64,000 bases of DNA from an archaeon (GCA_043799715.1 JAZDNM010000003.1:28903-92902); one strand, 5' to 3'; positions 1 through 46,650 are shown, numbered from the stretch's first letter. Numbers and translations: made by a program. Notes: generated from the sequence alone by a model not told the origin.

Positions 1-3000
1 CCTGATGAGTTCCGCGAGTTCTACAGGCAGGGCACTTACAAAAAGCAGTTTGATGCCGCGACATCTGGGACAGAATGGAAAACAATCTCATGGAATGTTT
101 CAAGATACTCAAAATTCGGGCAGGAACTGGCAAAAGATGATTCAACTGTTTTGCTGATGCATTTTAATAATGATTCAAGTGTTGGGGAGAATTACAACAA
201 TTCAAATGGCAGCGTGATAAATGATTACTCTGATGGCAACAACAACGGCACGCTTCATACTGGAATTGCAAATGGCATAACCTACTCTTCAACAGGCGGC
301 AAGTTTTCAGGAGCATTCACTTTTGACGGCAAGAATGATTATGTAAGCATTCCTAATAGTGCTGATTGGAATTTTGGCACTGCAAAAGATTTCACTATTG
401 ATTTATGGGCAATATTTAGAGATATAAGCTTAATTAAGGGGCTTGTTGTTGCAGATAACTCAGCCTATACGACTGGTTGGGAATGGATATGGCAAGGAGT
501 ATCAGGGAACCTTCAACTTTTTGAAGCAGGGGGGGCGGGGTCATCCAACATATTGTGGTCTCCCTCTACGAACACTTGGTATCATCTCGCTCTTGTGCGT
601 TCAGGCTCGAACAGTACGGTTTATGTTAATGGTGTCCGTATTGGCACATATCCTAATTATAATCTCAATAATGATAATAATGCCCTTATCGTGGGTGCTA
701 CTGGAGCTGGAACTGACCAATTTTTCAACGGCACCATCGACGAAGTCGCAATCTACAACAGAAGCTTGCGTGAAGATGAGATTCAGGACCACTTTGAAAG
801 GGGCGATGAAACAAGAAAAGTTTGGATGCAGACAAGAAGCTCTGCTAATAATGTGACTTGGGGAGAATGGACTGGAAACAAGGAGATGCCACAGCCAAAT
901 GAGCAGATAACAAATTCATCAACAGCGCAGAATGGCACTTTGCTTTCTCTAAGTTTTGATGATGCTTCGACAAAAACACAGACAATTGGGCAGAGGGGCT
1001 ACAAGGGGTATGATGGAGAAAAACCAGATGCTAATACTAAACTTCTGCTTCACATGGATGGAAGTGATGCTTCAACAACCTTCACAGATTCAAGCATATA
1101 TGGAAAATTGGTAACTGCTGTTGGTAACGCCCAGCTTGACACTGCCCAGAGCAAGTTCGGGGGAGCAAGCGGCTTGTTTGACGGCACTGGTGATTATCTT
1201 TCTATTCCAGATAGTGCTGATTGGGCTTTTGGAACAGGTGATTTTACTATTGATACTTGGGTGAGGTTTAATGTATTGCCTGGTGCTGGAAATTACCCGG
1301 CATTTGTCGGTCAAAGTGATGGTGGTCTTAGTGACTGGGTTTTCAGTATTCCTGAGTCAGGCAGCACCTATAAATTAAGAATGGCTGTTGGAGGTTCTGC
1401 GCAATATGGTGATTTTAAAATGACTAATAATTGGGGTGTATCTACTAATACTTGGTATCATCTTGCTTTTGTTAGAAGTGGCAGTAATGCATACATTTTC
1501 ATTGATGGAGTTTCGCAAGCATTGACTACAGATGCTACCTGGGGAATTTTCCCTGATTCTAGTGCTGTTCTAGCTATAGGAGGTCATGTAAGAGATAGTA
1601 AGTGGTTAGATGCATGGATGGATGAGTTTAGGATTATCAAAGGCATAGCCCGCTGGACTTCAAACTTCGCAGTTCCAACACAGGCATACGTTGCAGATAT
1701 TGTCTCGTCAGGCAAGTTTCTCTCTGCTTTCAATGTTTCAAGTTTTGGAGGCGGCACTCTAAAATATCCAACAGGAGCCAGCGCTGATACTGATACAGTC
1801 CTGTTATGCAGGTTTGACAATTCATATGCATGCGACACCGGGCAAAATGGGACAATGAGTGCTGATGGGTATACCAAACTGCTTCTGCATTTTGATGGGG
1901 GGGGCAATGGTACCACAACTTTCTTGGATTCTGAAACAACTCCCAAGGCAGTAACAGCAAATGGGCAGGTTTATATTAACACAGCGCAGAAAAAGTTTGG
2001 GGCGAGCTCAGGATTTTTTGATGGGGCTGGGGATTATCTTTCTTTGGCAGATAGTGATGACTGGGCATTTGGTTCAGAAGATTTCACAATTGATTTTTAT
2101 ATAAAGTGGGCTGGAAGCGTAACTGCTAATGCCGGATTACTTTCTCATTGGGCGGGTCCTCCAAATGATGATTGGAATATTTATTATGATACTAATGGAT
2201 TTACTTTTTACTATTCTGCTAATGGAACTTATCCACCTGGCTATTTCTTTTTCCCTTGGAGAGCCACCTTAAATAATTGGCATCATATTGCTTTTGTGAG
2301 AAATGGAAATAACTTTAAGTTGTATGCTGATGGAATTCAGGTTGGTTCTACTCAAGACATGACTGGCATTAGCTTATACAATGCAGCAACAACTTTAATT
2401 ATTGGAGATGTTCCTACTTGGGAGGTATATTTTAACGGCTTTCTCGATGAGGTTAGAATTAGCAAGGGCGTCGCGCGATGGACTTCCAATTTTGCCCCGC
2501 CGACTGCGCAGTATCCATTTGAGTTTGAAACAGGTAAATACGGGCAGGGCGCGAAGTTCAATGGCAATGTGAGTTATTTAACATTGAAAGACAGCGACGA
2601 CTGGAATTTTGGCAGCGGGGATTTCACGATTGATACATGGGTTAGATTTAATTCTATGGATGGAGCAGCCCAAACCCAAGTGTCTCAATATGTAGATGAC
2701 GATAATTTTTGGAGGATAGTTCACGATGGAACATCTACTTTTATTCTTCAATTCAAAAATGGTGCAGCTAATAAAGGCTATTATTTAGCTTCATGGACCC
2801 CAGTTATAAATACTTGGTATCACGTGACATGGGAAAGAAGCGGGAGCATTGCTCTACTTTTTATAAATGGAATATCTATAACTCCAACAGAAAATACCGC
2901 CTTTGGGAGTAATGATGTAGGTAATTTAGCTGCTAATCTTAATATTGGTAAAGGAATTTCAGCCGTTCAATATATGAACGGCACCCTCGACGAACTCCAC

Positions 3001-5196
3001 ATCACAAAGGGCAGGGCGCGCACACAAAATGAGATTTATAATGATTATTTTGGAAACCTGAATAAAACTGCCGGAACTATTGCGTTCTGGACAAAGCCAG
3101 AGGGCTGGAATGGAAATGACAGCAATCCACACATATTTTATGAAACATCTGATGCAGACAATGCAGCATTCATGAGAATAGGCAAGGATGCAGGAAACAA
3201 TTTGTTCTTTAATATGAATAATGGCACTGATAATGCCACAAAACTGCTCCTGCATTTTGATGGTGCAGATGCAAGCACAACATTTACTGACAGCTCCCCA
3301 ATTCCCAAAACAGTAACACCAAACGGAGGCGCGCAAATCAGCCAGGTTAGCACATCTGGCTTGTTTGATGGAGATAGTGATTATTTAACAGTTCCAGACA
3401 GTGCTGACTGGAATATGGGGACAGGAGCATTTACTGTTGATACTTGGGTGAGGTTTAATTCTTTAGCTGGAAATACTTATGCTTTATGGGGTCAGAGTAA
3501 CAACGCTACAACATCTGGTTGGGGATTATGGCATCAACATAGTACAAATACATTAGATTTTGTATTATATTTTGGTAGTACTTCTTTATATTTGACAGTT
3601 CCTTTTACTTCCGTTACTAATAATTGGTATCATATAGCCTTGGTTAGAGTAGATGATAGTAATGCAGCAACTGGTTGGAGAATTTTTATAGATGGGGTAT
3701 CTCAAACACTTACAAAAACATCGGGAAATTGGAATGCAGGTATATCAGATATAAGTGAATTATTCAGAGTAGGTTATAGTGTTAGCACAGGTCTTGCAGA
3801 TTTAAATGGCTGGATTGATGAATTTAGAGTCTCCAAAGGCATCGCGCGCTGGACTGGAAATTTTGTTCCTCAGACAGTGCCTTACACAACTGATTCCTCA
3901 ACAAAACTGCTCCTGCACATGGATGGAAGAGATGCCTCAACAACATTCACTGATGATACAGGAAAGACTGTTACAGCAGTGGGAACTGCGCAGATTGACA
4001 CAGCACAATATAAGGTTAATTCCCAGAAATTCAGCCAGGCTGCTTATTTTGATGGCAGCGGGGATTATCTCAATTTAAGTGACAGCGCTGACTGGGATTT
4101 CGGCTCGGGAGATTTTACTATTGATTGTTGGATTAGATATAATAATGTTCAAACATATTCTTTGCTTTCTCATTGGGGTGATTCTGGAAATAGGAATTTT
4201 GAAATCAACATAAATTCTGCTACTGTATATTTTTATTATGATAATGATGGTAATAATTTTCAATTTGGTTGGAGTCCATCAACTAATACTTGGTATCATG
4301 TAGCTGCAGTTAGAAATGGAAATGATTTTAAATTCTTCATTAATGGAATACAAAGTGGAGTTACTAAAAATGCTGCACTTATAAATTTTGGTGCGTCAAC
4401 AGCAAATCTTGTTGTAGGTAGAAGTATATGGGATGAATATTTTAATGGTTGGATGGACGAACTCCGTATCTCCAAAGGCATCGCGCGCTGGACAGGGAAT
4501 TTTGAGCCGCCAAAATTATCATATCCATATGAGAAGATTGTGTATTCGGATATTTCAAACTGGAGTGCGAATGTGTGGCAGCACGTTGCTGCCACTTGGG
4601 ACAATACGAGCATGAAGCTTTATATCAATGGAACGCAGGTTAACTCAACTGTTTCATCGCCTCTTGCCCTAAATTCAGTGAACCTTTCCTCCTCAATGAG
4701 GATTGGAAGCAATGCAGATGGCAGGGAAAACTGCCAATGCTCAATTGATGATTTTGCAATTTACAATTATCCAAAAACATCGCCAAAAACACTGGGATAT
4801 ACTGCTGATACAGGGGAGAATATCGCCTCGACTATCGGAAGATACATTGAGGCAAGGGCTATTTTTGCAACAAAGGATATTGAGAAGACAGTTGTCTTGG
4901 GAGAGATAACAATAACAGCAGAGGACTTGATTTTATGGAGCACTCCTTCATATGAAGGCACAACTCTGATTAACGGAAACAGCATGACTGTTACTGTCAA
5001 CTTTTCTGACACTTCCAATCATCTATATGATGTTGTGTGCAACATTACAAGTTCTGGAGGAACAAACATGTGGGGTGTTTATCTCCCTCCAAGCTATATG
5101 CTCAGCAATACAAGCATGAACATAACAGACACAATTGATGTTTCAAGCTGGAATGAAGGCAATTATTCCATGTCATGCAAAGTCAGGGATATTTAG
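1..5196 (+). CDS. Giant surface/secreted protein made of about 8 tandem LamG (concanavalin A-like lectin) domains; 5' end cut by the window edge
   Basis: Frame 1 is open from nt 1, with no stop before the track's TTG at 151, so the gene continues upstream. The recurring module is a TKLLLH(M/F)DG..ASTTFTDSS linker, then DG.GDYL..DS.DW.FG.GDFTID.W, NTWYH.A.VR.G, and DE.R(I/V)SKG(I/V)ARWT.NF.PP. Linker copies start near nt 139, 1036, 1873, 3238 and 3901. The protein is rich in N-x-S/T sequons. Confidence 0.8.
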   Translation, partial: PDEFREFYRQGTYKKQFDAATSGTEWKTISWNVSRYSKFGQELAKDDSTVLLMHFNNDSSVGENYNNSNGSVINDYSDGNNNGTLHTGIANGITYSSTGGKFSGAFTFDGKNDYVSIPNSADWNFGTAKDFTIDLWAIFRDISLIKGLVVADNSAYTTGWEWIWQGVSGNLQLFEAGGAGSSNILWSPSTNTWYHLALVRSGSNSTVYVNGVRIGTYPNYNLNNDNNALIVGATGAGTDQFFNGTIDEVAIYNRSLREDEIQDHFERGDETRKVWMQTRSSANNVTWGEWTGNKEMPQPNEQITNSSTAQNGTLLSLSFDDASTKTQTIGQRGYKGYDGEKPDANTKLLLHMDGSDASTTFTDSSIYGKLVTAVGNAQLDTAQSKFGGASGLFDGTGDYLSIPDSADWAFGTGDFTIDTWVRFNVLPGAGNYPAFVGQSDGGLSDWVFSIPESGSTYKLRMAVGGSAQYGDFKMTNNWGVSTNTWYHLAFVRSGSNAYIFIDGVSQALTTDATWGIFPDSSAVLAIGGHVRDSKWLDAWMDEFRIIKGIARWTSNFAVPTQAYVADIVSSGKFLSAFNVSSFGGGTLKYPTGASADTDTVLLCRFDNSYACDTGQNGTMSADGYTKLLLHFDGGGNGTTTFLDSETTPKAVTANGQVYINTAQKKFGASSGFFDGAGDYLSLADSDDWAFGSEDFTIDFYIKWAGSVTANAGLLSHWAGPPNDDWNIYYDTNGFTFYYSANGTYPPGYFFFPWRATLNNWHHIAFVRNGNNFKLYADGIQVGSTQDMTGISLYNAATTLIIGDVPTWEVYFNGFLDEVRISKGVARWTSNFAPPTAQYPFEFETGKYGQGAKFNGNVSYLTLKDSDDWNFGSGDFTIDTWVRFNSMDGAAQTQVSQYVDDDNFWRIVHDGTSTFILQFKNGAANKGYYLASWTPVINTWYHVTWERSGSIALLFINGISITPTENTAFGSNDVGNLAANLNIGKGISAVQYMNGTLDELHITKGRARTQNEIYNDYFGNLNKTAGTIAFWTKPEGWNGNDSNPHIFYETSDADNAAFMRIGKDAGNNLFFNMNNGTDNATKLLLHFDGADASTTFTDSSPIPKTVTPNGGAQISQVSTSGLFDGDSDYLTVPDSADWNMGTGAFTVDTWVRFNSLAGNTYALWGQSNNATTSGWGLWHQHSTNTLDFVLYFGSTSLYLTVPFTSVTNNWYHIALVRVDDSNAATGWRIFIDGVSQTLTKTSGNWNAGISDISELFRVGYSVSTGLADLNGWIDEFRVSKGIARWTGNFVPQTVPYTTDSSTKLLLHMDGRDASTTFTDDTGKTVTAVGTAQIDTAQYKVNSQKFSQAAYFDGSGDYLNLSDSADWDFGSGDFTIDCWIRYNNVQTYSLLSHWGDSGNRNFEININSATVYFYYDNDGNNFQFGWSPSTNTWYHVAAVRNGNDFKFFINGIQSGVTKNAALINFGASTANLVVGRSIWDEYFNGWMDELRISKGIARWTGNFEPPKLSYPYEKIVYSDISNWSANVWQHVAATWDNTSMKLYINGTQVNSTVSSPLALNSVNLSSSMRIGSNADGRENCQCSIDDFAIYNYPKTSPKTLGYTADTGENIASTIGRYIEARAIFATKDIEKTVVLGEITITAEDLILWSTPSYEGTTLINGNSMTVTVNFSDTSNHLYDVVCNITSSGGTNMWGVYLPPSYMLSNTSMNITDTIDVSSWNEGNYSMSCKVRDI
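5107..5196 (+). repeat. Copy 1 of the LamG gene tail repeat (the genuine 3' end, encoding NTSMNITDTIDVSSWNEGNYSMSCKVRDI*)
   Basis: This 90-nt segment recurs at 6370-6459 and partially at 7311-7338 (direct reading of the sequence). Confidence 0.7.
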
Positions 5197-5213
5197 AAAA
5201 GAAACCCCCCAAT

Positions 5214-5233
5214 CGTTACTTTAGAAAGTAACG
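5214..5233 (+). terminator. Perfect 9-bp hairpin just after the LamG stop codon; possible terminator or recombination-site structure
   Basis: The sequence is cgttacttt-ag-aaagtaacg. A second hairpin, aagtaatg-aa-cattactt, follows at about 5249-5266. Confidence 0.3.
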
Positions 5234-5277
5234 AAAGTTATTTAAATAAGTAATGAACATTACTTTTGTAGGTAAAG

Positions 5278-5895
5278 ATGATGTCAAAAGATGAATTAAA
5301 AATTTTAGGAGTGTTCAAAGAAAATCTATTCGGAGAATTTAGCATATCTGAGGTAATGAAAAAAGCAAACAAAAAAAGCAAACCGTGGGTATTCAACACC
5401 CTTAAGAAATTTGAAAAAGAGAAATTCTTATTATCTGGGAAAAAGGCGAATATAAACTTATACAAGGCAAATTTGGGAAACCCCCTCTTGATTCAAGCTT
5501 TCTTGTTTTTAGAAAGCCAGAGTTTAGTGAATTTCAAATACCTTGGCATTATAATCAAGATTATTGAAAAGATACCAGCAGAAAATTACTGCCTCTTGAT
5601 ATTTGGAAGTTACACTGAAAACAAGCAAAGGAATGATTCAGATTTAGACCTCTGCTTTTTAGTTGAGAATAAAGAATCTGAAAGCAAAATCAAGCCTTAT
5701 TTTAATGAAATTAAGCTTCTTTCTGAGGTTAAGATTGATGAGCATTACATCACCTTTGAGGATTTTGTTAGAATGCTCTTAAAAGATGAGGAAAATTTGG
5801 GAAAACAGATGTTCAAGAAGCACAAGACATTATTTAACGGCAACATATTTTATAAATTGGTGCTTAAAGCTCATAAAAATGGATTTAATGGATAG
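5278..5895 (+). CDS. Minimal nucleotidyltransferase (MNT family) with an N-terminal winged-helix region; putative antitoxin of an MNT/HEPN pair
   Basis: It carries the nucleotidyltransferase motif GSYTENKQRNDSDLDLCF (G-S...D-x-D). It overlaps the following HEPN gene. Confidence 0.75.
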   Translation: MMSKDELKILGVFKENLFGEFSISEVMKKANKKSKPWVFNTLKKFEKEKFLLSGKKANINLYKANLGNPLLIQAFLFLESQSLVNFKYLGIIIKIIEKIPAENYCLLIFGSYTENKQRNDSDLDLCFLVENKESESKIKPYFNEIKLLSEVKIDEHYITFEDFVRMLLKDEENLGKQMFKKHKTLFNGNIFYKLVLKAHKNGFNG

Positions 5896-6367
5896 GGCAA
5901 AATTGTATTTGCAAAGGGCAAAAAATGAATTAAATTTAGCGAGAGCAATCTTTAAACTGTCTTGCGAAGAGAAGTTAAAGACAGAATTTGAACTAACTGC
6001 TGATTCAACATTTTTTAGCAATGTTATAGCCAATTCTTATTACTGTATATTTTACTCTGCAAAGGCGATATTAGCAAGTAGAGGCATAAGAACATTTCCG
6101 CCAGAGGAGCACAAAAAAACACTCAATGAATTTGAAAAATTAGTAGATTCTGGCAAGATTGACATTGAATTATTGAGGATATACAAGTCAATTGTAGTGA
6201 AAGCAGAAGAGCTTCTTAATATATTCCAAAAAGAGAAAGGCAAGCGAGGAAAATTTACCTATCAAAAGCTCCCGCAGGCAAATTTACAGCCAGCAAGAGA
6301 GAGTTTGGATAATGCTGAAAAATTTTTCAGAAATATTTATTTGATTATTGAAAAAGAAACAAAATAA
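5879..6367 (+). CDS. HEPN domain protein, partner of the MNT gene
   Basis: The helical protein has the HEPN-type pattern YYCIFYSAKAILASRGIRTFPPEEHKKTLNEF. The ATG at 5879 (MDLMDRAKLYL) overlaps the MNT stop. The track's 5786 start lies inside the MNT gene and is unlikely. Confidence 0.7.
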   Translation: MDLMDRAKLYLQRAKNELNLARAIFKLSCEEKLKTEFELTADSTFFSNVIANSYYCIFYSAKAILASRGIRTFPPEEHKKTLNEFEKLVDSGKIDIELLRIYKSIVVKAEELLNIFQKEKGKRGKFTYQKLPQANLQPARESLDNAEKFFRNIYLIIEKETK

Positions 6368-6369
6368 TG

Positions 6370-6459
6370 AACACAAGCATGAACCTCACAGACACAATTG
6401 ATGTTTCAGGATGGACAGAAGGCAATTACAGCATGTCATGCAAAGTCAGGGATGTTTAA
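6370..6459 (+). repeat. Copy 2 of the LamG gene tail repeat, not attached to any long ORF
   Basis: The sequence aacacaagcatgaacctcacagacacaattgatgtttcaggatggacagaaggcaattacagcatgtcatgcaaagtcagggatgtttaa aligns without gaps to 5107-5196. It would encode NTSMNLTDTIDVSGWTEGNYSMSCKVRDV*. It begins 3 nt after the HEPN stop. Confidence 0.75.
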
Positions 6460-6518
6460 GCCCTATACCAATTTAACAGCAAAAATGTTACATAAGCAAC
6501 AAAAGATTAAAATGCATA

Positions 6519-6635
6519 ATGGAAACTGAAACCAAAATCATAAGGATGTTAATAGAAAAGAAGAGAGCTTTTACTATTAGAGAGAATATTGTCACAGAAA
6601 AGCATATATCAAAGAATAATAACCTTTATATATAA
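6519..6635 (+). pseudogene. Short ORF (38 aa) resembling the N-terminal winged-helix part of an MNT-type protein; possible cassette remnant
   Basis: METETKIIRMLIEKKRAFTIRENIV... parallels the N-terminus of the 5278 protein (KILGVFKENLFGEFSISEV). It is below the ORF-track size cutoff. Confidence 0.25.
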
Positions 6636-6670
6636 CTTTATATAAGTTATTATATACAAATATATAAAAA

Positions 6671-6931
6671 ATGGAACAAGAAATATTGCACTATCCAAAT
6701 TTAAGAACTGTCCTGATGGTAGAGAAAATTCTGAAAGAAGCAGAAACCACAATTTCTAGAACTGAACTAAAAGAAAGGCTGCCTAAAGGCATAATGCACC
6801 AAACCCTTAATTTGATTCTTGATTATTTAGAAAAAAGAGGAATGATAGTGGATATACATAAGGGAATATTGTGGATATACAATCCAAGCCCAAAACTAAA
6901 AGCTGCAATAGAAAAAGGGACAGAGGTTTAA
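6671..6931 (+). CDS. Small winged-helix DNA-binding protein, putative antitoxin
   Basis: The 86-aa protein abuts the next ORF directly (stop at 6929-6931, ATG at 6932). An AT-rich palindromic TATA-like region lies upstream at about 6620-6660. Confidence 0.5.
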   Translation: MEQEILHYPNLRTVLMVEKILKEAETTISRTELKERLPKGIMHQTLNLILDYLEKRGMIVDIHKGILWIYNPSPKLKAAIEKGTEV

Positions 6932-7309
6932 ATGTTCAGGGGAAAAGAGATTCATGTAGTATTTTCAGAAGAAGCAAGAGAAAGTTTTGACGAACTAAAC
7001 AAAGTTGTTGGTGAAGAGATTAAGAAGGATATAATGGCTTCTGTGCACCAAACCCTGCTTAAGTCCATAAACAGGGCAAAGGAATTGCTAAGAGAAAATC
7101 CTTTTGCAGGCATTCAAATACCCAAGAGCCGAATCCCCCGCAAATACCTTTTAAAGTATAATGTTACAAACCTCTGGAAAATAAACCTTTCAGATTTTTG
7201 GAGGATAGTTTATACTGCTACTGGCAACCAAGTTGAAATCATGGCTTTTGTTCTTGACATAGTTGACCATAAAACTTATGATAAGATATTTGGTTATAAG
7301 GGGAAGTAG
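6932..7309 (+). CDS. RelE/ParE-superfamily toxin-like protein
   Basis: The C-terminal pattern NLWKINLSDFWRIVYTATGNQVEIMAFVLDIVDHKTYDKIFGY is typical of RelE/ParE-fold addiction toxins. It is translationally coupled to the small upstream wHTH ORF. Confidence 0.55.
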   Translation: MFRGKEIHVVFSEEARESFDELNKVVGEEIKKDIMASVHQTLLKSINRAKELLRENPFAGIQIPKSRIPRKYLLKYNVTNLWKINLSDFWRIVYTATGNQVEIMAFVLDIVDHKTYDKIFGYKGK

Positions 7310-7310
7310 A

Positions 7311-7338
7311 GTGCTGAGCAACACAAACATGAATAATC
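7311..7338 (+). repeat. Copy 3 (partial) of the LamG tail region
   Basis: gtgctgagcaacacaaacatgaataatc matches atgctcagcaatacaagcatgaacataa at 5098-5125 at about 20 of 25 leading positions. It starts 2 nt after the toxin stop, the same relative position as copy 2. Confidence 0.4.
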
Positions 7339-7494
7339 TCCCAATAAGTTAAACAAATGTCCAAAAAATGAAAAAATACCTAAAAATAGGTAAAAAGAGA
7401 AGTAATAATTACCTCACTTCAAAATAAATCACAAAAATATCCAATATCACTATCCTCATCACACTCTCCAGATAAAAAGCAGGGAAAGCGAGAG

Positions 7495-7528
7495 GCGCGA
7501 GAAATCCCGGGATTTCGAAATGTCTCGC
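7495..7528 (+). promoter_or_regulatory. Nested palindrome enclosing the start codon of the 7520 gene
   Basis: There is a perfect 16-nt palindrome gaaatcccgggatttc at 7501-7516. It is flanked by gcgaga (7495-7500) and tctcgc (7523-7528), and the ATG (7520-7522) sits in the internal bulge. Confidence 0.35.
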
Positions 7529-10198
7529 ATAAGCAAAAGGAACTTTGATTTAGCCGGCAGAAGCAAATTCCTTACTGGGGAGTATGCAGTTTTATCTGCT
7601 GCGTTTCTGGCTGTTTTCTTTGTTCTGCTTCTCGCTTTCCCTGAACTTGCCTATGCCAACAACACAGCATCAGGCATAAGGAGCTTTACAGTCGGCGGAT
7701 TGGTTTGCGAAGTAAACCAGACGTGCAGGGGGGGGTGGACTGACATGTTCCACGTTTCAAATATTTCTGATGCTCATGGGGAAATGGCAAACAGCTCTGA
7801 GTATGCCTATAAAGTATGCTGTGTCACGAATGAAACAGCTGTAAACTGGCTTGGGAACAACTGCAGCCAGAAATACTGGACAATGCTGCACATTTCAAAT
7901 GAGACAAACGCCCATGCAGAACTGCCGAATAATTCTCTTCTTGGAATTAACCTGTGCATAAATATGAATACTACAAGATATGTTTTCAACTGGACTTATA
8001 GCCAGAACTGCTCTGGATACGGAGACTGCATATTTTCCATAAGCAATGAGACAAATGCGCATTTTGCTGGCTGCGGCGCTGACACTTCATATGCCCTGAA
8101 ATTATGCGCTGACATAAAGTTTGACAGGACACTGCCTTCTGTGAATCTTCTTACTCCTGCAAACAACACAAATTTTTCAAGCGCATCAGTTGAGTTCAAT
8201 TATACTGTTGATGATGACAACAATATAGCCAACTGCAGCTTTATTGCAAATAGCACTGTAATAAGCACAAGCTCTTCAATAACAAAAATAGCAAACCAGA
8301 CATTCCTGCCTTCATTAAGCCAGGGAAGCTTTAACTGGACAGTCAACTGCACTGACAGCAACAGCAATACAGGAACAGCAGGAATGAGGAGACTAAGTAT
8401 AAGGGGCATGGACTGCGAAGTTGCAGCATCGTGCCAGTCAGGATATTATGACTTGCTGCATATGAATGACACTACAAACGCCCATGCAGAACTGCCAAAC
8501 AGAAGCATATTCAGCTATAAAATATGCTGCAAGAGCAATATTGCAGGCGCAAGCCTGACAGCAAACTGCTCATCAGCTTTTGGCAGCTCATGGACAATGC
8601 TCCATTTGTATCAGGAAACAAACTCCCATGTGGAAATGAACAACAGGAGCATTTACAATATTTCTGCATGCATGAACCTTAATTCAACTGCATATATCAT
8701 GTCATGCAGCTATAAAACAACATGCGCTTACGCAGAAACATGCGTTGCAGCGGTAAATCAGGAAACAAACTCCCATGTCTCAGGATGCGCTTCAGAGGCA
8801 TATGGAACAAGATTATGCTGCCAGATTGAAAAGGACACAACACCTCCTGTTGCAAGGTTAATCTCGCCTGCAAATGGAAGCACATGGGATGGCGATGCAA
8901 CAGCAACAGTAACATTCACTTATAATGTGACTGATGCGAACAACATCGTGAACTGCAGCCTTTTTGTTGATTCTGCATTTGACCAGGTTGACAATACAAT
9001 AACAAAAGACACAAGCCAGTCATTTTTGAAGGATTTTATGTTAAGCGCAAATCACACATGGTATGTGAAGTGCGTTGATGCTGCAAACAATATAGGGCTG
9101 CAGCCGTCATGGCAGTTTAATTTCTCGCGCTCTGTTATTCCTGAAACTCCAAACATAACATTTGTGTTTCCTACTCCTGCCAACAGCGAAAGGCAAGTCA
9201 AAAACTGGATTTATGTAAATGTTACAGTCAACACAACACTGAACAATGTCAGCGCATGCCTGCTTGGCTGGAATTCAGGAGCAGGAGAAGTAAACGAGAC
9301 AATGAGCAAGATTGGAACAGGCACAAATGCAACATGCTGGCTAAACAAGACAACAGTTGACGGCACAACTTACACATTCAGGGTTTATGCAAATGACACA
9401 ACAAACACATTTGGCATGTCCGGGCAGAGAAGCAATATTGAAAATTCAATTCCAGGCGCTGTTGCAGCCCTTGTTTATCCTAAAGTCAACCAGAGCACAA
9501 CAAACAGGACTTTGCAATTTAACTGGAGCGCCTCATCAGACAGCGAAGGGGATGCACTGACATATGAAGTGAATATCTCATGTTTCCCTGCATGCTCTGC
9601 TGACAACAGGAAAGTCAACTCTTCTGCAAACCAGAACTGGACAACGCTGGATTCAAGATTGAGATACTTCTGGGATGACACTTTCTATTACAACTGGACT
9701 GTGAGAGTATGGGATGGCTATGAAGTAAGCGACTGGACTGTGCCGCAGAATTTCACACTGGCAAGTTATGTTGCGCTTTCATTGCCCACAGAAAAAGTAA
9801 ATTTCAGCACGCTTACTCCGGGCTCAACCGAGGATACAACCTCAGATAATCCTGCGCCATTGGTATTGCAAAATGATGGAAACTCATTTGCTGATATCAA
9901 CCTTTCAATATTCCAGAATAACTGGCTTTGGACAAGCATAGCTGCAGCAGCTTCTGACTATTTCAGATACAAGATAGACAGTGTTCTAGGGGAATCAGGG
10001 GCGTTTAATGCAGCCGGCTCTCAAACAACACTGGCGCAGGTTCCTCAGTCAAATTTCACTGTTATTGACAACCTGAATTACACAGATGCATCTGATTCAG
10101 CAGAGATTGATGTGTCAATAACAGTGCCTCCGAATGAAGGTGCTGGAATAAAATCAAGCCAGATGGTATTTACCGGCTGGTATGTGAGGGAATTATGA
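7520..10198 (+). CDS. Large membrane-anchored or secreted surface protein with duplicated Cys-rich TNAH-repeat modules followed by Ig-like domains
   Basis: It has an N-terminal TM or signal segment. There are six copies of the motif (L/F)H.S/N.(E/T)TN(A/S)H.E...(N.S)...C(C), arranged as 2 x 3. Each triplet is followed by D.T.P.V.L..PAN and F.Y.V.D.NNI.NCS. N-x-S/T sequons are very dense. Confidence 0.7.
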   Translation: MSRISKRNFDLAGRSKFLTGEYAVLSAAFLAVFFVLLLAFPELAYANNTASGIRSFTVGGLVCEVNQTCRGGWTDMFHVSNISDAHGEMANSSEYAYKVCCVTNETAVNWLGNNCSQKYWTMLHISNETNAHAELPNNSLLGINLCINMNTTRYVFNWTYSQNCSGYGDCIFSISNETNAHFAGCGADTSYALKLCADIKFDRTLPSVNLLTPANNTNFSSASVEFNYTVDDDNNIANCSFIANSTVISTSSSITKIANQTFLPSLSQGSFNWTVNCTDSNSNTGTAGMRRLSIRGMDCEVAASCQSGYYDLLHMNDTTNAHAELPNRSIFSYKICCKSNIAGASLTANCSSAFGSSWTMLHLYQETNSHVEMNNRSIYNISACMNLNSTAYIMSCSYKTTCAYAETCVAAVNQETNSHVSGCASEAYGTRLCCQIEKDTTPPVARLISPANGSTWDGDATATVTFTYNVTDANNIVNCSLFVDSAFDQVDNTITKDTSQSFLKDFMLSANHTWYVKCVDAANNIGLQPSWQFNFSRSVIPETPNITFVFPTPANSERQVKNWIYVNVTVNTTLNNVSACLLGWNSGAGEVNETMSKIGTGTNATCWLNKTTVDGTTYTFRVYANDTTNTFGMSGQRSNIENSIPGAVAALVYPKVNQSTTNRTLQFNWSASSDSEGDALTYEVNISCFPACSADNRKVNSSANQNWTTLDSRLRYFWDDTFYYNWTVRVWDGYEVSDWTVPQNFTLASYVALSLPTEKVNFSTLTPGSTEDTTSDNPAPLVLQNDGNSFADINLSIFQNNWLWTSIAAAASDYFRYKIDSVLGESGAFNAAGSQTTLAQVPQSNFTVIDNLNYTDASDSAEIDVSITVPPNEGAGIKSSQMVFTGWYVREL

Positions 10199-10719
10199 GA
10201 ATGAAAATAATGAAGAATAACAGCAATCAAAAAATATTGAAAACGCAGATTGTGCTGAACATAGCAGCAATAATCATGTTTGTTGTAATCTTAAATTTTA
10301 GCATTTTGCTTTCCCCTTCGCAAGGGATGCAAACAAGAGGCAGTTCAGTGTCTTTCAGCTGGCTTGGATTTGCATCCTCTGCTCTTGTTGATGACAATCC
10401 TGATTTTACTTCTCCGATAATTGCAGAGAAGAACAGGCAGATTGAGCTGAAGCCGGGAACATATTACTGGTGCGTTCAGTTTATGGGCAAGTGCCTTGAC
10501 AAGCAGGAATTTGCGATAAACTCTGATGTTGTAATTGATGTCAAAACTGCGGTTATTGATAATGAAACAGCATACAGGATTGAAAACAAAGGCAACACAA
10601 GAGTAATGCTCAACATAATAGGAATGCTGACAGGAAAAGCAATACTTGAGCCGGATGCAGTGATTTACGAAAAAAATTCCTCTGATATAACAAAAATAAT
10701 CGCTTCAGAAAATGAATAA
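10195..10719 (+). CDS. Hypothetical membrane-anchored protein
   Basis: It has an N-terminal hydrophobic helix (IVLNIAAIIMFVVILNFSILL). It overlaps both neighbouring genes, which suggests an operon with the surface proteins. Confidence 0.5.
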   Translation: MRMKIMKNNSNQKILKTQIVLNIAAIIMFVVILNFSILLSPSQGMQTRGSSVSFSWLGFASSALVDDNPDFTSPIIAEKNRQIELKPGTYYWCVQFMGKCLDKQEFAINSDVVIDVKTAVIDNETAYRIENKGNTRVMLNIIGMLTGKAILEPDAVIYEKNSSDITKIIASENE

Positions 10720-17429: not shown

Positions 17430-18529
17430 TTCTTCCTAAAAAACTCCCTTACTGCAGCGGAAATCTGCCTGATTTCATCCTCTTTTATAAAATGGAAAAA
17501 TGGAAGATGCAGGCATCTTTTGTAATAATCCTCTGCTCCTGGAAATTTCCTATTCTGGTTTTCTGAAAATATGCAGATTGCTGGATAAGGCAATTCTGCT
17601 AAGATATTTCTTTTTTTCAGGAAGTCATGCAGCATGTTCCTTTCATCCTCGCCTTCAAGCTGAATTACTAATCTTGTGTAAAGCCCTTCATTCTTGTTTT
17701 TTGAGTTGATAATCCTAATTTCATTTATACCGCTTAGTTCCTTGAAGTATAACTCTTTCATCTTGTTATGGCGCTCCTGCATCTTGCTGAAATACCTCAG
17801 CTGGACTGCAATGCTGCTTATCGCAGGAAGCGAAATTCTTGAAATTCCCTTGAGCTCCTTTGCCTGCATCAATCTGCTTATTTTTTCTGCATTCTCCTCT
17901 GATTTGAATGTGAGCATCCCGCCCCCGCTGCTGCCTATTGAAGAGATGAATTTTTCATTTGAGAAGCTGAAAATTGCAAAATCGCCTAAACTCCCAAGAT
18001 ACTTGTCATCAATCTTGTTTCCTATTGCCTGGCAGGCATCTTCTAAAAGAACGAGATTGTTTTTTTCTTTTATTTTAACAAGCTCTTTCATATTGCAGGC
18101 ATTTCCAAACATATGAGCTGCAACAATAGCCTTTGTATCCCTGTTGACAAGTTTCTCTGCCTTTTCTGTGTCAATTGCAAAATTTTCAGGATTTACATCG
18201 CACAGCCTCATTTTTATATCAGGGAAGCATGAGAAAGAGCTGGTTAAGCTGTAATATTCTGCTGCAGGAACAATAACCTCTGCTTTTTTTCCTCTGCTGT
18301 TTAAACTTAACAACCATAAGAAAAGAGTGAATGCCTGCGTGCCTGAACCAACGGATTTTGAATGAATAAACCCGAATTTCCTGCTGAATTCATCTTCGAG
18401 GGCAGCAGAATATTTTTGGATGTCATTTGCTCCATTTAAGCCCCTTATTGCCCTGCTGAGCTCTGCGAAATATTTTTTTTCGAGAATTTTGTCTATTCTC
18501 AGGTTGTCATGCCTTGCTTTCCACACCAT
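17426..18529 (-). CDS. DegT/DnrJ/EryC1/StrS-family PLP-dependent sugar aminotransferase
   Basis: It has the motifs GSGTQAF, EDACQAIG and GDFAIFSFSNEKFIS (Lys in the SF..K context). Confidence 0.8.
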   Translation of the reverse strand: MVWKARHDNLRIDKILEKKYFAELSRAIRGLNGANDIQKYSAALEDEFSRKFGFIHSKSVGSGTQAFTLFLWLLSLNSRGKKAEVIVPAAEYYSLTSSFSCFPDIKMRLCDVNPENFAIDTEKAEKLVNRDTKAIVAAHMFGNACNMKELVKIKEKNNLVLLEDACQAIGNKIDDKYLGSLGDFAIFSFSNEKFISSIGSSGGGMLTFKSEENAEKISRLMQAKELKGISRISLPAISSIAVQLRYFSKMQERHNKMKELYFKELSGINEIRIINSKNKNEGLYTRLVIQLEGEDERNMLHDFLKKRNILAELPYPAICIFSENQNRKFPGAEDYYKRCLHLPFFHFIKEDEIRQISAAVREFFRKK

Positions 18530-18559
18530 AAGCCTTAAAAATAATTCAAATTTAAATAT

Positions 18560-19741
18560 ATGATGGTTGAGGTTGAGGCTGCAAGAGATGAAAGGGAGAT
18601 TATAGCGCAGTTCAACATTCTATTGAAGAATTTCTCAGGTTTCAATAATCTGGGCGAAGTCAGGGAGATAAGAAAAATTGAGGACATAGATAGAATACCA
18701 ATGACAACAAGGCAGAGCCTTGAATCACTGGGAATAAAGAATGCTCCTATTCAACCTTTATGCATGCATGTGACAAGCGGCTCTTCAGGCAAAAATGTCC
18801 CTGTATTCTACTCTGAAAAATCATGGCAAGTTCTTGTGGAAAGGACAAAAAAGCTTTTTGAATTTATGGAAATTTCAAAGAAAGACATAGTCCTTAACCT
18901 GTTTGAATACGGGCTTTCAAATGAGGGGCTTGCAATAGACAATGCGCTGGCAAGTGCGGGGATAGCTGCATTTCCCTGCGGAAATCTTGAAAAGGAAAAG
19001 AAGTATCTTGCCAGGGACTTGATTAAAAAGATAAAGCCAACAGCCCTTATCTCTTTTCCTTCATTTATCTTTGACCTTATTGAATTGAATGCTGACTTGT
19101 CATCGATAAAGAAGATTATGCATGCAGGCAGCTTTGTATCAAGGGAGTTCTTTGATTTTATGCGCAGCAGGATAGATGCTGTTTTTTACAATTGCTATGG
19201 CTGCAACGAAGTCGGCCCTATTTCAATCAGCAGGACTTTTGAAGATGAATTCTCGCTTCTTATTGATAAAGGGCTTTACATAGAGGTTCTTGATGACAAT
19301 AGCAAGCCGCATGAAATAGGAGAAGGCAGGATTTTAATCACTGATTTGTATAATCTTTCAACCCCAATGATAAGATATTTTCTTGGTGACAGGGTTAAAA
19401 TAATAAAGCAGGATGGAAAAAAATATATAAAAGTCCTGAAAAGAGAGGACTCCTACTCCAAAATAAACGGCGCTGTAATGCCTGTAGGTCTGCTTGTAAA
19501 GACATGCATGGAACAAATAGGGCATGACCACTTTTCAATACTTGTGAATTTTTCAAAATCCTCAATGAAGGACGAGACTGTAATCTATCTGCTCAAAAAA
19601 GATGCAGGCAAGGCATCAGCACTGCAGAAAGAGTTCAACGAGAAACTTAATCTCTTCCCGCAAATCAAGCTGATAGGAAATATGCCCAGGACATTCACAG
19701 GCAAGATAAGGAATTTTATTGATGCAAGAAAACCAGAGTAA
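18560..19741 (+). CDS. Adenylate-forming ligase of the PaaK/CapK/F390-synthetase family
   Basis: It has the AMP-binding motif TSGSSGKNVPVFYS, and its size and architecture match phenylacetate-CoA ligase-like enzymes. Confidence 0.7.
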   Translation: MMVEVEAARDEREIIAQFNILLKNFSGFNNLGEVREIRKIEDIDRIPMTTRQSLESLGIKNAPIQPLCMHVTSGSSGKNVPVFYSEKSWQVLVERTKKLFEFMEISKKDIVLNLFEYGLSNEGLAIDNALASAGIAAFPCGNLEKEKKYLARDLIKKIKPTALISFPSFIFDLIELNADLSSIKKIMHAGSFVSREFFDFMRSRIDAVFYNCYGCNEVGPISISRTFEDEFSLLIDKGLYIEVLDDNSKPHEIGEGRILITDLYNLSTPMIRYFLGDRVKIIKQDGKKYIKVLKREDSYSKINGAVMPVGLLVKTCMEQIGHDHFSILVNFSKSSMKDETVIYLLKKDAGKASALQKEFNEKLNLFPQIKLIGNMPRTFTGKIRNFIDARKPE

Positions 19742-22980: not shown

Positions 22981-23015
22981 AATCAGAACCAATTGATATT
23001 GGTTCCGATACCTCC
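22981..23015 (-). repeat. R1 hairpin element, copy A (35 nt, identical to the copy at 31979-32013)
   Basis: The plus-strand sequence is aatcagaaccaattgatattggttccgatacctcc. In the sense of local transcription (minus strand) it reads GGAGGTATCGGAACCAAT-ATCA-ATTGGTTCTGATT, a 12-bp stem. It lies between the rtcB stop and the first gene of the Hxs-like operon. Confidence 0.7.
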
Positions 23016-31978: not shown

Positions 31979-32013
31979 AATCAGAACCAATTGATATTGG
32001 TTCCGATACCTCC
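31979..32013 (-). repeat. R1 hairpin element, copy B (identical 35-mer)
   Basis: It is the same 35 nt as 22981-23015. It lies between the 114-aa gene stop and the 181-aa gene start, 4 nt upstream of the ATG. Confidence 0.7.
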
Positions 32014-32417: not shown

Positions 32418-32570
32418 TGGGGACAGGGCGAATCGAACGCCCAACCGACGGTTTCTTCGCTATTGTAGTTTCTTTCTACTTCCAAGCTTTTTAATTTCTC
32501 TTTCCAAGGTTTCTCTTTTGAAAGAGAAAGCTTTCTGGAGCCGTCCGTTTTACCATTAAACTATGCCCCC
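32418..32570 (-). tRNA. tRNA-Trp (CCA) with an intron of about 81 nt at the canonical 37/38 position
   Basis: Manual fold: acceptor GGGGGCA/TGTCCCC, anticodon stem GACGG/CCGTC, loop CTCCAGA, T arm GGGCG-TTCGATT-CGCCC, discriminator A. The intron spans about 32453-32533. Confidence 0.85.
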
Positions 32571-38718: not shown

Positions 38719-38802
38719 GGCGGAAGGAGAGAATCGGACTCTCTTTTAGCGGGTTCTGCAGATTTCCACAGCCGCTTGTTCTGCCATTAAACTACATCCG
38801 CC
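38719..38802 (-). tRNA. tRNA-His (GTG) with encoded G-1 and a 12-nt intron
   Basis: G-1 pairs with C73. The acceptor is GCGGATG/CTTCCGC with one U-U, the anticodon stem is AGCGG/CCGCT and the loop is CTGTGG. Intron AAATCTGCAGAA (38754-38765) gives a good bulge-helix-bulge, with CTGT pairing to GCAG. The T loop TCCGATT is atypical. Confidence 0.8.
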
Positions 38803-42189: not shown

Positions 42190-42348
42190 GCGGGGATGCC
42201 GGAGTGGCCAAACGGGCAGGACTCAGAAGAAGGTATCGGAAACCTTGGTTTCTGATGTGCCAAACTTAAGGTCCTTCGGAGAAACGGGAAAAGGGATGTG
42301 AAATCCTGTGGCTTAGTGCCTGCGTAGGTTCGATTCCTACTCCCCGCA
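42190..42348 (+). tRNA. tRNA-Leu (CAG), class II, with an intron of about 75 nt at 37/38
   Basis: The acceptor is GCGGGGA/TCCCCGC, the anticodon stem CAGGA/TCCTG and the loop CTCAGA. It has a long variable arm and T arm GTAGG-TTCGATT-CCTAC. The intron spans about 42228-42302 and carries an R1-like hairpin at 42230-42257. Confidence 0.85.
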
Positions 42349-45180: not shown

Positions 45181-45321
45181 GGGCCTGTAGCTCAGCCAGG
45201 TTTAGAGCGCCTGTCTTATACGACGGTAAGAGGATACTCTTATCAATTGGATAAAGTAATCTTTATCAGAAAGTTGCTCTAAGCAAGCAGGTGGCCCGAG
45301 GTTCGAATCCTCGCAGGCCCA
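45181..45321 (+). tRNA. tRNA-Ile (TAT) with an intron of about 65 nt at 37/38
   Basis: The acceptor is GGGCCTG/CAGGCCC, the anticodon stem CCTGT/GCAGG and the loop CTTATA. A bulge-helix-bulge can be drawn, with C32-A35 pairing to intron TAAG and bulges TA|C and CA|A. The anticodon call depends on this intron placement. Confidence 0.7.
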
Positions 45322-45373: not shown

Positions 45374-45491
45374 GCCCCTTTAGTCTAGAGGCCCAGGATA
45401 GAGCCCTTTCGATGAGCTTTCTCTTTAGGAAAGAGAAATTAAAAAGTTCAATAGAAAGGCTTTGACACGGGTTCGAATCCCGTAGGGGGCA
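45374..45491 (+). tRNA. tRNA-Glu (TTC) with an intron of about 45 nt at 37/38
   Basis: The acceptor is GCCCCTT/AGGGGGC, the anticodon stem GAGCC/GGCTT and the loop CTTTCG. The T arm is ACGGG-TTCGAAT-CCCGT. The intron (about 45412-45456) contains R2 blocks. Confidence 0.8.
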
Positions 45492-46516: not shown

Positions 46517-46650
46517 GCCTCCGTAGCTCAGCTGGCAGAGCACGGCTTTCGTAAAGCTTTTCTTTGCTAAAGAAAACCTTGGAAAAGAAAAGTCTGTAGG
46601 AAACTACTTGAAAAAAGCTGGGGTCGCAGGTTCAAATCCTGCCGGAGGCT
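46517..46650 (+). tRNA. tRNA-Thr (CGT) with an intron of about 61 nt at 37/38
   Basis: The acceptor is GCCTCCG/CGGAGGC, the anticodon stem CGGCT/AGCTG and the loop TTCGTA. The T arm is GCAGG-TTCAAAT-CCTGC. The intron (about 46554-46614) is homologous to the tRNA-Trp intron. Confidence 0.85.

Follow-up and report, generated by a model that had tools for sequence, protein, structure and literature searches.

Toxin-antitoxin cassettes alternating with copies of a surface-protein gene's 3' end in an archaeal contig

We analyzed a 64,000-nucleotide (nt) stretch of an archaeal contig (GCA_043799715.1, JAZDNM010000003.1:28903-92902; hereafter the window), in which the last ~90 nt of a giant gene for a LamG-repeat surface protein recur behind the gene's stop codon, between small toxin-antitoxin (TA) operons. 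We consider it probable that the region from 5.1 to 7.35 kb is an array of addiction-type cassettes that entered behind the LamG gene stop by duplication of the gene end and were later rearranged by recombination between the copies, which we call tails. The array holds an MNT/HEPN cassette and, next to it, a winged helix-turn-helix (wHTH)/RelE cassette fused to the remnant of a third cassette. Its features are given below, together with the two genes that anchor it; loci from other assemblies carry L numbers.

1-5196, plus strand: 3' part of the giant surface-protein gene with LamG (Laminin_G_3) repeats, anchoring the array on the left; open in frame 1 from the first base
5107-5196, plus strand: tail 1, the functional LamG gene end, encoding NTSMNITDTIDVSSWNEGNYSMSCKVRDI and a stop (repeat search, translation)
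5197-5277, plus strand: leader type A; palindrome CGTTACTTTAGAAAGTAACG at 5214-5233, AT-rich TATA-like stretch 5' of the MNT start
5278-5895, plus strand: MNT-type nucleotidyltransferase with an N-terminal extension, candidate antitoxin (Pfam Polbeta 2.5e-08 and NTP_transf_2 2e-06, above cut-off)
5879-6367, plus strand: HEPN-like protein, candidate toxin; overlaps the MNT gene by 17 nt and ends in TAA (6365-6367)
6370-6459, plus strand: tail 2, an orphan copy with frame and stop intact (88% identical to tail 1 over 89 nt)
6460-6518, plus strand: leader type B, with GTTACATAAGCAAC (6487-6500) and a TATA-like box
6519-6635, plus strand: short open reading frame (ORF) of 38 amino acids (aa); a similar stub (MKTEDKIIRML) lies behind a tail in L008
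6600-7326, plus strand: exchanged unit: a promoter region of its own, wHTH and RelE-fold genes, and 16 nt from the start of the next tail
6671-6931, plus strand: 86-aa candidate antitoxin, possibly winged-helix (weak family matches: Pfam SelB-wing_2, E = 0.034)
6932-7309, plus strand: predicted RelE/ParE-fold toxin, 125 aa (AlphaFold2 model, pLDDT 86)
7311-7333, plus strand: tail 3, an orphan copy truncated after its 5' part (motif; junction kept in five RelE cassettes)
7375-7395, plus strand: leader or flank type D motif AATACCTAAAAATAGGTAAAA, with the palindrome TACCTA-N4-TAGGTA
7520-10198, plus strand: conserved gene for an 892-aa immunoglobulin-like surface protein, right anchor of the array (Pfam Big_7)

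A repeat search of the window aligned 5107-5195 with 6370-6458 over 89 nt without gaps at 88% identity, and a BLAST comparison of the 64 kb with itself ranked this pair as the top direct repeat beyond the internal repeats of the LamG gene (E = 1.3e-24). The ungapped repetition of the gene tail reported in a preliminary description, made from the sequence alone, therefore lies far above chance. Tails 1 and 2 are mutual closest relatives, agreeing at 78 of 90 nt, and 5 of their 12 mismatches fall at A while the others fall at T, C and G. As had also been described, tail 2 begins 3 nt past the HEPN stop and retains an open frame for NTSMNLTDTIDVSGWTEGNYSMSCKVRDV up to a stop. The 17-nt motif AGCAAYACAARCATGAA, from the 5' part of the tail, occurs at 5104, 6367 and 7317, three times against 0.12 expected from shuffled sequence, while a 36-mer of the 3' part is found at 5155 and 6418 and in no other place. 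Across the cassettes GC content is 32%, compared with ~40% to either side.

Tail 3 begins 2 nt past the stop of the RelE-like gene (TAG, 7307-7309) and matches at ~19 of 22 nt over 7313-7334; on the side of tail 1, the shared sequence starts at ~5098. Considered alone, tail 3 is only moderately convincing. In four places elsewhere (twice in L003, once each in L007 and L008), the RelE 3' end is joined to a full-length tail, and in alignment that junction is homologous to the one at tail 3. Because of these junctions, we regard tail 3 as a real, decayed copy. Thus the third copy proposed earlier stands as a truncated tail, although its homology ends at ~7333 and not at 7338. All of the longer orphan tails keep the frame, a stop at the homologous position and the conserved pattern W..EG.YSM.C..RD. 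The 29-aa tail peptide itself matched no toxin domain and no Pfam family.

Two TA cassettes lie between the tails, in agreement with the preliminary description. For the MNT/HEPN (type VII-like) pair at 5278-6367, the MNT protein exceeds the Pfam cut-off and stays below that of NCBIfam MntA (2.4e-07), whereas the HEPN-like protein is borderline (Pfam HEPN, E = 2.6e-4; score 21.6 bits, cut-off 22) and has a weak PDB match to the UPF0332/HEPN protein AF0298. The structural model places the product of 6932-7309 in the RelE/ParE fold, with a small partner gene upstream. When this model was compared with the PDB by Foldseek, the matches were RelE/ParE/YoeB/HigB toxins only, led by ParE2, YoeB, PfiT, HigB2 and RelE, with target-normalised TM scores of 0.59-0.76 in the best ten PDB matches. 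Matches to its sequence are weak (YoeB, E = 1.4e-4, below the Pfam cut-off). The protein (database entry V1886_00615) has 88 homologs, many from DPANN archaea, and the 86-aa gene is kept as the upstream partner of RelE in L003, L023, L030 and others. Searches for exact copies of the window's MNT and RelE proteins returned nothing. The 38-aa ORF at 6519-6635 is probably the leftover of a deleted cassette. It had been read as a decayed MNT-like stub, a reading that we could not verify, and BLASTP found no similarity to the MNT protein of L002.

A metagenome scan returned two orthologous LamG gene ends (L002 and L001), and homologs of the neighboring gene and of RelE led to three more loci. The check suggested in the preliminary description, a search for the same gene with different cassettes between its tails, gave a positive result: four further assemblies (L002, L003, L007 and L008) share the design, with LamG tails between TA or ATPase cassettes whose content and order vary. 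On the 410-kb contig of L002, the genuine LamG tail is followed by 25 nt, a degenerate second tail, an AAA_14/DUF4143 ATPase gene and a third tail. The 3' end of the ATPase gene runs into this third tail, which shares 43 identical nt with the genuine one. L003, whose contig ends inside the array, has four tails and four cassettes upstream of the ortholog of the 892-aa gene, in the order PIN-like/UPF0175, tail, wHTH/RelE, tail, wHTH/RelE, tail, HEPN-like/MNT, partial tail. The remaining two loci come from unrelated samples and lie on short contigs, L007 reading RelE, tail and HEPN-like gene, and L008 reading RelE, tail, a remnant with UPF0175, and a long tail. The first 39 nt of window tail 1 exactly match an orphan tail of L008. 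Distal copies are truncated or internally deleted, as seen in window tail 3, L002 tail 3 and L003 tail 4.

Comparison with L003 demonstrates that cassettes have been exchanged between genomes. Window positions 6600-7326 are 90.5% identical to L003 1776-2509 over 735 nt, whereas the orthologous genes on the flanks are only 66.9-69.7% identical, and it is from this difference that exchange follows. The junctions are conserved as well: by alignment, RelE meets the tail at one and the same nucleotide in 5 cassettes from 4 assemblies, and the UPF0175 gene is joined to a longer, 145-nt tail at a junction that is identical in L003 and L008. Between the stop of a cassette's last gene and the tail there are 0-3 nt, or the gene runs into the tail.

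The sequence that follows a tail's stop belongs to one of four leader types, each common to several genomes and each with one palindrome (CGTTACTTT-N2-AAAGTAACG; GTTAC-N4-GTAAC; ATAGAC-N5-7-GTCTAT; TACCTA-N4-TAGGTA). Leader A, which showed a hairpin when folded, is 82% identical over 56 nt to the leader behind L008 tail 1; leader B is 90% identical over 40 nt to the leader behind L002 tail 2 and is related to those after L003 tail 3 and L002 tail 3; and the type D motif recurs at L002 12133-12153 (95%) and twice in L007, before a HEPN-like gene. Variation in a tail's 3' part follows the leader on its right, with the last codons, either ..RDQ-stop or ..RD[VI]-stop, tracking the leader type. Within single loci, tails 2 and 3 of L003 are identical for ~70 nt and then switch, and tails 1 and 3 of L002, after their 43 identical nt, diverge at the stop and the two codons before it. 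Such mosaic tails indicate recombination within the tails, at positions that appear to be variable.

The palindromes of the different cassette types (window 5214-5233, 6487-6500 and 7377-7392; L003 2641-2654, 2677-2690 and ~7611-7630; L006 5372-5391) lie just 5' of a TATA-like box and read CGTTACTTT..AAAGTAACG, GTTAC-N4-GTAAC, TACCTA-N4-TAGGTA or AGATATTTAGCTAAATATCT. They are likely operators for the cassette's own DNA-binding antitoxin, and a part in recombination is conceivable. No known RNA was detected by Rfam over 5000-7600.

The pattern extends to other host genes. Among other DPANN loci sampled for related RelE genes, a TA cassette lies between duplicated 3' ends of the upstream gene at three unrelated genes from other DPANN lineages (L009, L023 and L030). 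In L009, an AbiEi/AbiEii cassette stands between 42-nt copies (41 of 42 identical) of the end of a 61-aa gene, and the AbiEii stop adjoins the distal copy. An empty allele is available in L015, where a tRNA-synthetase gene directly follows the 61-aa gene. The distal copy of L009, its TAG stop and five flanking bases (CATTT) match this allele, while the proximal copy has one mismatch and ends in TGA instead. This match sets the polarity of the event, with the original gene end in the distal position and the new copy in the proximal one. L009 and L015 also provide the empty site by which a long target duplication is recognized. In L023, wHTH/RelE and RHH/PemK cassettes are enclosed by 67-nt copies (79%) that derive from the end region of a gene of 176 aa. 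In L030, a wHTH/RelE cassette separates archease from RtcB, and the final seven archease codons with the stop border it on both sides, a repeat of only 29 nt in which all five differences are synonymous. No flanking gene-end repeat was seen, at the sensitivity used, in two other RelE-bearing DPANN loci (L017 and L027); the pattern is thus frequent, not universal. Taken with the related LamG loci, the polarity at L009/L015 supports the earlier proposal of independent acquisitions, with the tails as replacement or displaced gene ends.

L009 additionally has a GC-rich, non-coding segment of ~340 nt (~395-740, minus-strand orientation) between the distal tail and the tRNA-synthetase start. It contains internal stem-loop-like repeats, is absent from L015 and has no Rfam match; possibly it represents a structured RNA or a small insertion of separate origin.

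We propose that each cassette would enter at the very end of a host gene, duplicating or replacing its last 22-145 nt. As the gene end is duplicated or replaced on entry, the gene would stay intact, and its former end, with whatever followed, would be pushed downstream. Reuse of the same site in successive rounds could then give the order tail-cassette-tail-cassette-tail, and the tail copies could act as portable homology for the duplication, deletion, reordering and transfer of cassettes between related genomes. Looping out from tail to tail would yield a circle of one tail and one cassette, able to enter any LamG tail by a single crossover. The circle, the enzyme responsible and the succession of events within the window are our inferences. 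The most likely agent is the host's homologous recombination, to which we give about an even chance. It is favored by the variable breakpoints, by the failure to find a recombinase, by the unrelated sequences duplicated at different genes and by the UPF0175 junction lying 50 nt upstream. The first event at a new gene, the one that makes the duplication, is explained by neither a homologous nor a site-specific route.

Several observations weigh against this proposal. An empty LamG site, which the preliminary description had suggested looking for, was not found among the comparators, with L001 stopping 300 nt past the gene, and no excised circle was seen. The comparators amount to five assemblies only, several of them short contigs. 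The MNT/HEPN cassette of the window has no close nucleotide relative elsewhere, and for that reason we infer its mobility by analogy. The closeness of tails 1 and 2 fits an old in-place duplication or gene conversion as well. Left junctions cluster at ..TGCTGAGCAAC.., possibly a fixed crossover core, and near-perfect repeats of 42-43 nt (L009, L002) have the typical size of an integrase att identity segment. Finally, the synonymous-only differences in L030 are suggestive of ends that once worked and do not prove that both copies did so, because changes in the functional copy alone would give the same picture.

The main alternative, possible but in our judgment doubtful, is accretion by site-specific recombination. 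The cassettes would be minimal integrase-less elements (functionally integron-like, or like the cis-mobilizable elements, CIMEs, discussed below) with the tail as attachment site (att), acted on in trans by a tyrosine or serine recombinase whose gene lies at another genomic site or on a plasmid or virus passing through. Integration of this kind classically leaves direct repeats of a gene's 3' end, the repeats of L002 (43 nt, 100%) and L009 (42 nt, 41/42) are of att size, most tail copies begin at one place (..TGCTGAGCAAC..), the cassette ends are as ORF-tight and compact as those of integron cassettes, and accretion of CIMEs is documented (PMC5704250). Yet no recombinase was seen in the window, 64 kb of a 353-kb contig (sizeable ORFs inspected by eye and ten unassigned ones searched with Pfam), or in the checked flanks of related loci. 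No integrase-bearing relative that uses the tail as att came to light either: a degenerate DNA pattern of the tail gave no match in IMG/VR or GTDB representative genomes, a DNA pattern of the RelE 3' end and a RelE family profile gave none in IMG/VR, and tblastn with RelE gave none among PLSDB plasmids and INPHARED phages, so that no carrier plasmid or virus was identified. Apparent breakpoints within the tail fall at differing places, although gene conversion could blur a core; the junction of one cassette type lies 50 nt further upstream; and related RelE cassettes elsewhere are bordered by quite different duplicated sequences. Of the earlier idea of site-specific integration with a replacement gene end, the gene-end repeats and the intact gene therefore hold, while site-specificity is unsupported given the apparently variable breakpoints and the recombinase that was not found. 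We also entertain, as an unlikely reading, a DPANN cassette-exchange system in which a coding 3' end takes the role of attC and a recombinase in trans or specialized host recombination captures, stacks and releases ORF-tight TA and defense cassettes at gene ends. If true, this would be an integron analogue anchored on protein-coding sequence, in which the target gene is never disrupted.

That the gene end was duplicated in place, by slippage or unequal crossing-over, with TA genes landing later and no mobile unit involved, is very improbable. It would account for tails 1 and 2 being mutually closest and for the empty site not found here, and it is largely refuted by the contrast between cassette (90.5%) and backbone (66.9-69.7%) identity with L003, by order and content that differ over five assemblies while the cassette-tail junctions are conserved, and by the recurrence of the pattern at the host genes of L009, L023 and L030, the first with an empty allele in L015. 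We give equally little credit to the tails as a silent store of adhesin C-termini (pilE/pilS-like or orphan-module-like) swapped by recombination, with TA genes serving only to stabilize it. The longer orphan tails do keep frame, stop and conserved residues, and each insertion alters a few C-terminal residues; still, 29-48 residues at most are affected, the changes are mostly conservative, the distal copies are truncated or internally deleted, and the pattern is also present at the housekeeping archease gene, where variation makes no sense. Orphan modules of polymorphic toxins in particular were rejected, the repeat being the extreme C-terminus up to the stop and not the region that precedes a toxin domain. 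Least credible of all, and close to dismissed, is that the tails are repeats of a known system, either integron attC sites, as in clusters of attC sites lacking an integrase (CALINs), or the template/variable pair of a diversity-generating retroelement (DGR). The variable regions of DGRs are located at the 3' ends of surface-protein genes. A DGR was rejected here because tail mismatches are not adenine-specific, falling at A, T, C and G, and no ORF of reverse-transcriptase size lies in 5-12 kb. In favor of attC, integrons and CALINs are known from archaea, Aenigmatarchaeota among them, and TA cassettes are frequent in these arrays (PMC9668308). Nevertheless, when four tail units were folded as single-stranded DNA, on both strands and with or without leaders, no long-range stem appeared. 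Six of the eight folds had z scores from -1.3 to +0.9, and those of window tail 1 (-3.4 and -2.4) were stabilized only by the short leader palindrome. IntI was not found in the window, and the cassettes have leaders of their own. An integron-like array, as first suggested, is thus apt for the stacked and shuffled cassettes and fails for the tails without attC-like hairpins and for the cassettes with their own leaders.

Other insertions were observed at or near these loci. The LamG ortholog of L002 (ORF 542-10456) has an intein-like insertion of ~560 aa at 4622-6721 that is absent from the window gene; its match to Pfam Intein_splicing (E = 1e-7) is interrupted by a large insert. Centrally, this insertion consists of the antisense strand of an intact TA cassette of ribbon-helix-helix (RHH)/PIN_2 type, through which the LamG frame passes without a stop. 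The RHH/PIN_2 cassette is found at 80% nt identity over 828 nt in an intergenic position in L003 (6680-7669), where its antisense is likewise open, for 329 codons. From its sequence, the L002 insertion looks like a TA module placed antisense within an intein, at the usual place of the homing endonuclease.

A second hotspot for cassettes lies at the other anchor. The stop of the 892-aa gene overlaps the start of the next gene (ATGA) at window 10195-10198, and the two are 1 nt apart in L005 (8953-8957). At this point, L002 (14165-15297) and L006 (5348-6456) carry MNT/HEPN cassettes and L003 (6666-7646) a reversed RHH/PIN cassette. The inserts are bordered by an 11-12-nt repeat, TAAAATGAAAA, that includes stop and start signals; given its shortness and AT-richness, it carries no significance by itself. 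Amid further TA cassettes of L002, positions 18480-19568 encode a lysine-rich protein of 362 aa in which NUMOD3-like motifs and a PD-(D/E)xK-like C-terminus were noticed by eye; Pfam gave only a weak DUF2726 match (E = 0.006). This protein may be a free-standing homing-type nuclease near the cassettes.

The left anchor ORF extends past the 5' end of the window. Its last 298 aa match Pfam Laminin_G_3 (E = 4.5e-24) and it has orthologs in L002 and L001, while its C-terminal 151 aa found no homolog among 5.8 billion proteins and none in GTDB representative genomes. Orthologs of the 892-aa gene lie at L002 12335-14164 and L003 3987-6665. The window also codes for RtcB, archease, RFC subunits and a FlaI-like ATPase. 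The host is likely a DPANN-type archaeon, because the distant homologs of a neighboring gene include one from an Aenigmarchaeota metagenome-assembled genome. The contig itself belongs to an archaeal metagenome-assembled genome at NCBI with V1886_ locus tags. Rfam identified six tRNAs of 83-159 nt, probably intron-bearing (32418-32570, 38719-38801, 42190-42348, 45181-45321, 45374-45491 and 46517-46650), where ARAGORN reports none. A perfect 35-nt direct repeat with the hairpin GAACCAAT-TGAT-ATTGGTTC is present at 22981-23015 and 31979-32013, 9 kb apart. Each copy lies just 3' of a minus-strand gene (RtcB and a 114-aa ORF), and the repeat may be a common terminator or regulatory element.

The closest precedent for the array is insertion with long target duplication of restriction-modification (R-M) units, reportedly a subject of Nobusato et al. 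in 2000. In bacteria, such units have no mobility gene, lie between repeats that vary from 30 to 500 bp and insert into a target that is single-copy in relatives (Furuta, Abe & Kobayashi 2010, PMC2853133). Some of those repeats extend over a host gene's 3' end, the inserts are AT-rich, and the cycle proposed for the units runs from invasion through amplification via the repeats to release (PMC2853133). The screen of Furuta et al. 2010 took inserts <20 kb with no mobility genes and a direct repeat >30 bp that is single-copy in an insert-free relative, and no archaeal case passed it (PMC2853133). Here the inserts measure 0.85-1.6 kb and have no mobility genes, and the direct repeats of 89 nt (window), 43 nt (L002), 42 nt (L009) and 67 nt (L023) exceed that length; the L030 repeat is only 29 nt. 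The L009/L015 pair fits the screen in all but its cargo, TA genes in place of R-M genes. What is shared with the R-M cases is the small addiction-type unit without a mobility gene between long direct repeats. Our cases differ in that the cargo is TA genes or an AAA_14/DUF4143 ATPase and not R-M genes, the host is archaeal, the site is reused to build an array, diverged gene ends travel with the cassettes, and the frame and stop of the upstream gene are always preserved. In the literature, we found no prior description of long-target or gene-end duplications with TA cassettes in archaea, and none of this mode for TA modules.

Other known systems resemble the array in part. CIMEs and tandem accretion at the 3' end of a protein-coding or tRNA gene, as in the ICESt1 family in fda, involve integrase-less elements bounded by attL and attR, with older elements pushed distally (PMC5704250). 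They too show direct repeats over a gene's 3' end and supply a replacement end that leaves the gene intact. However, CIMEs are decayed integrative and conjugative or integrative and mobilizable elements that span several kb and have a fixed core and a cognate integrase family that is known, whereas the TA cassettes here are 0.85-1.6 kb with ORF-tight ends and variable breakpoints, and no cognate integrase is known. Chromosomal integron arrays and CALINs, including archaeal ones, consist of shuffled, compact and TA-rich cassettes (PMC9668308), and share with our loci repeats of one family, 60-140 nt long and more similar to each other inside one genome, and an integrase that is often off the contig. 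In contrast to them, the repeats here are coding gene ends without an attC hairpin, the anchor is a host gene and not attI/intI, and each cassette brings a promoter-like leader whose palindrome is specific to its type. Sequential displacement, known from Rhs C-termini and from the effector-immunity arrays of the type VI secretion system in V. cholerae (PMC5361080), also involves recombination into the 3' part of a gene, pushes the older end and its partner downstream, so that pieces of gene ends are left between the orphan modules, and has no known integrase. There the displaced piece is a toxin domain and its partner an immunity gene; here it is a harmless adhesin end of 29-48 residues, and the cargo consists of unrelated, self-contained TA modules.

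To our knowledge, it has never been settled by what means chromosomal TA modules spread when no plasmid, phage or transposon carries them, and the mobile-element biology of DPANN archaea is almost unknown. Our findings suggest that TA modules can move without an integrase of their own. Because the cassette carries or creates a spare gene end, its insertion is harmless, and the spare ends give homology for amplification, loss and transfer. The array is of interest for the reuse of a coding gene end as array repeat, its TA cargo, its archaeal host and the shuffling across genomes. It extends insertion with long target duplication from bacterial R-M genes to archaeal TA modules, and since both R-M and TA units are addiction-type, this hints at a shared route. 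A duplicated gene end right after a small operon also offers a search key for defense and TA hotspots that have no recognizable integrase, which would be useful in DPANN archaea.

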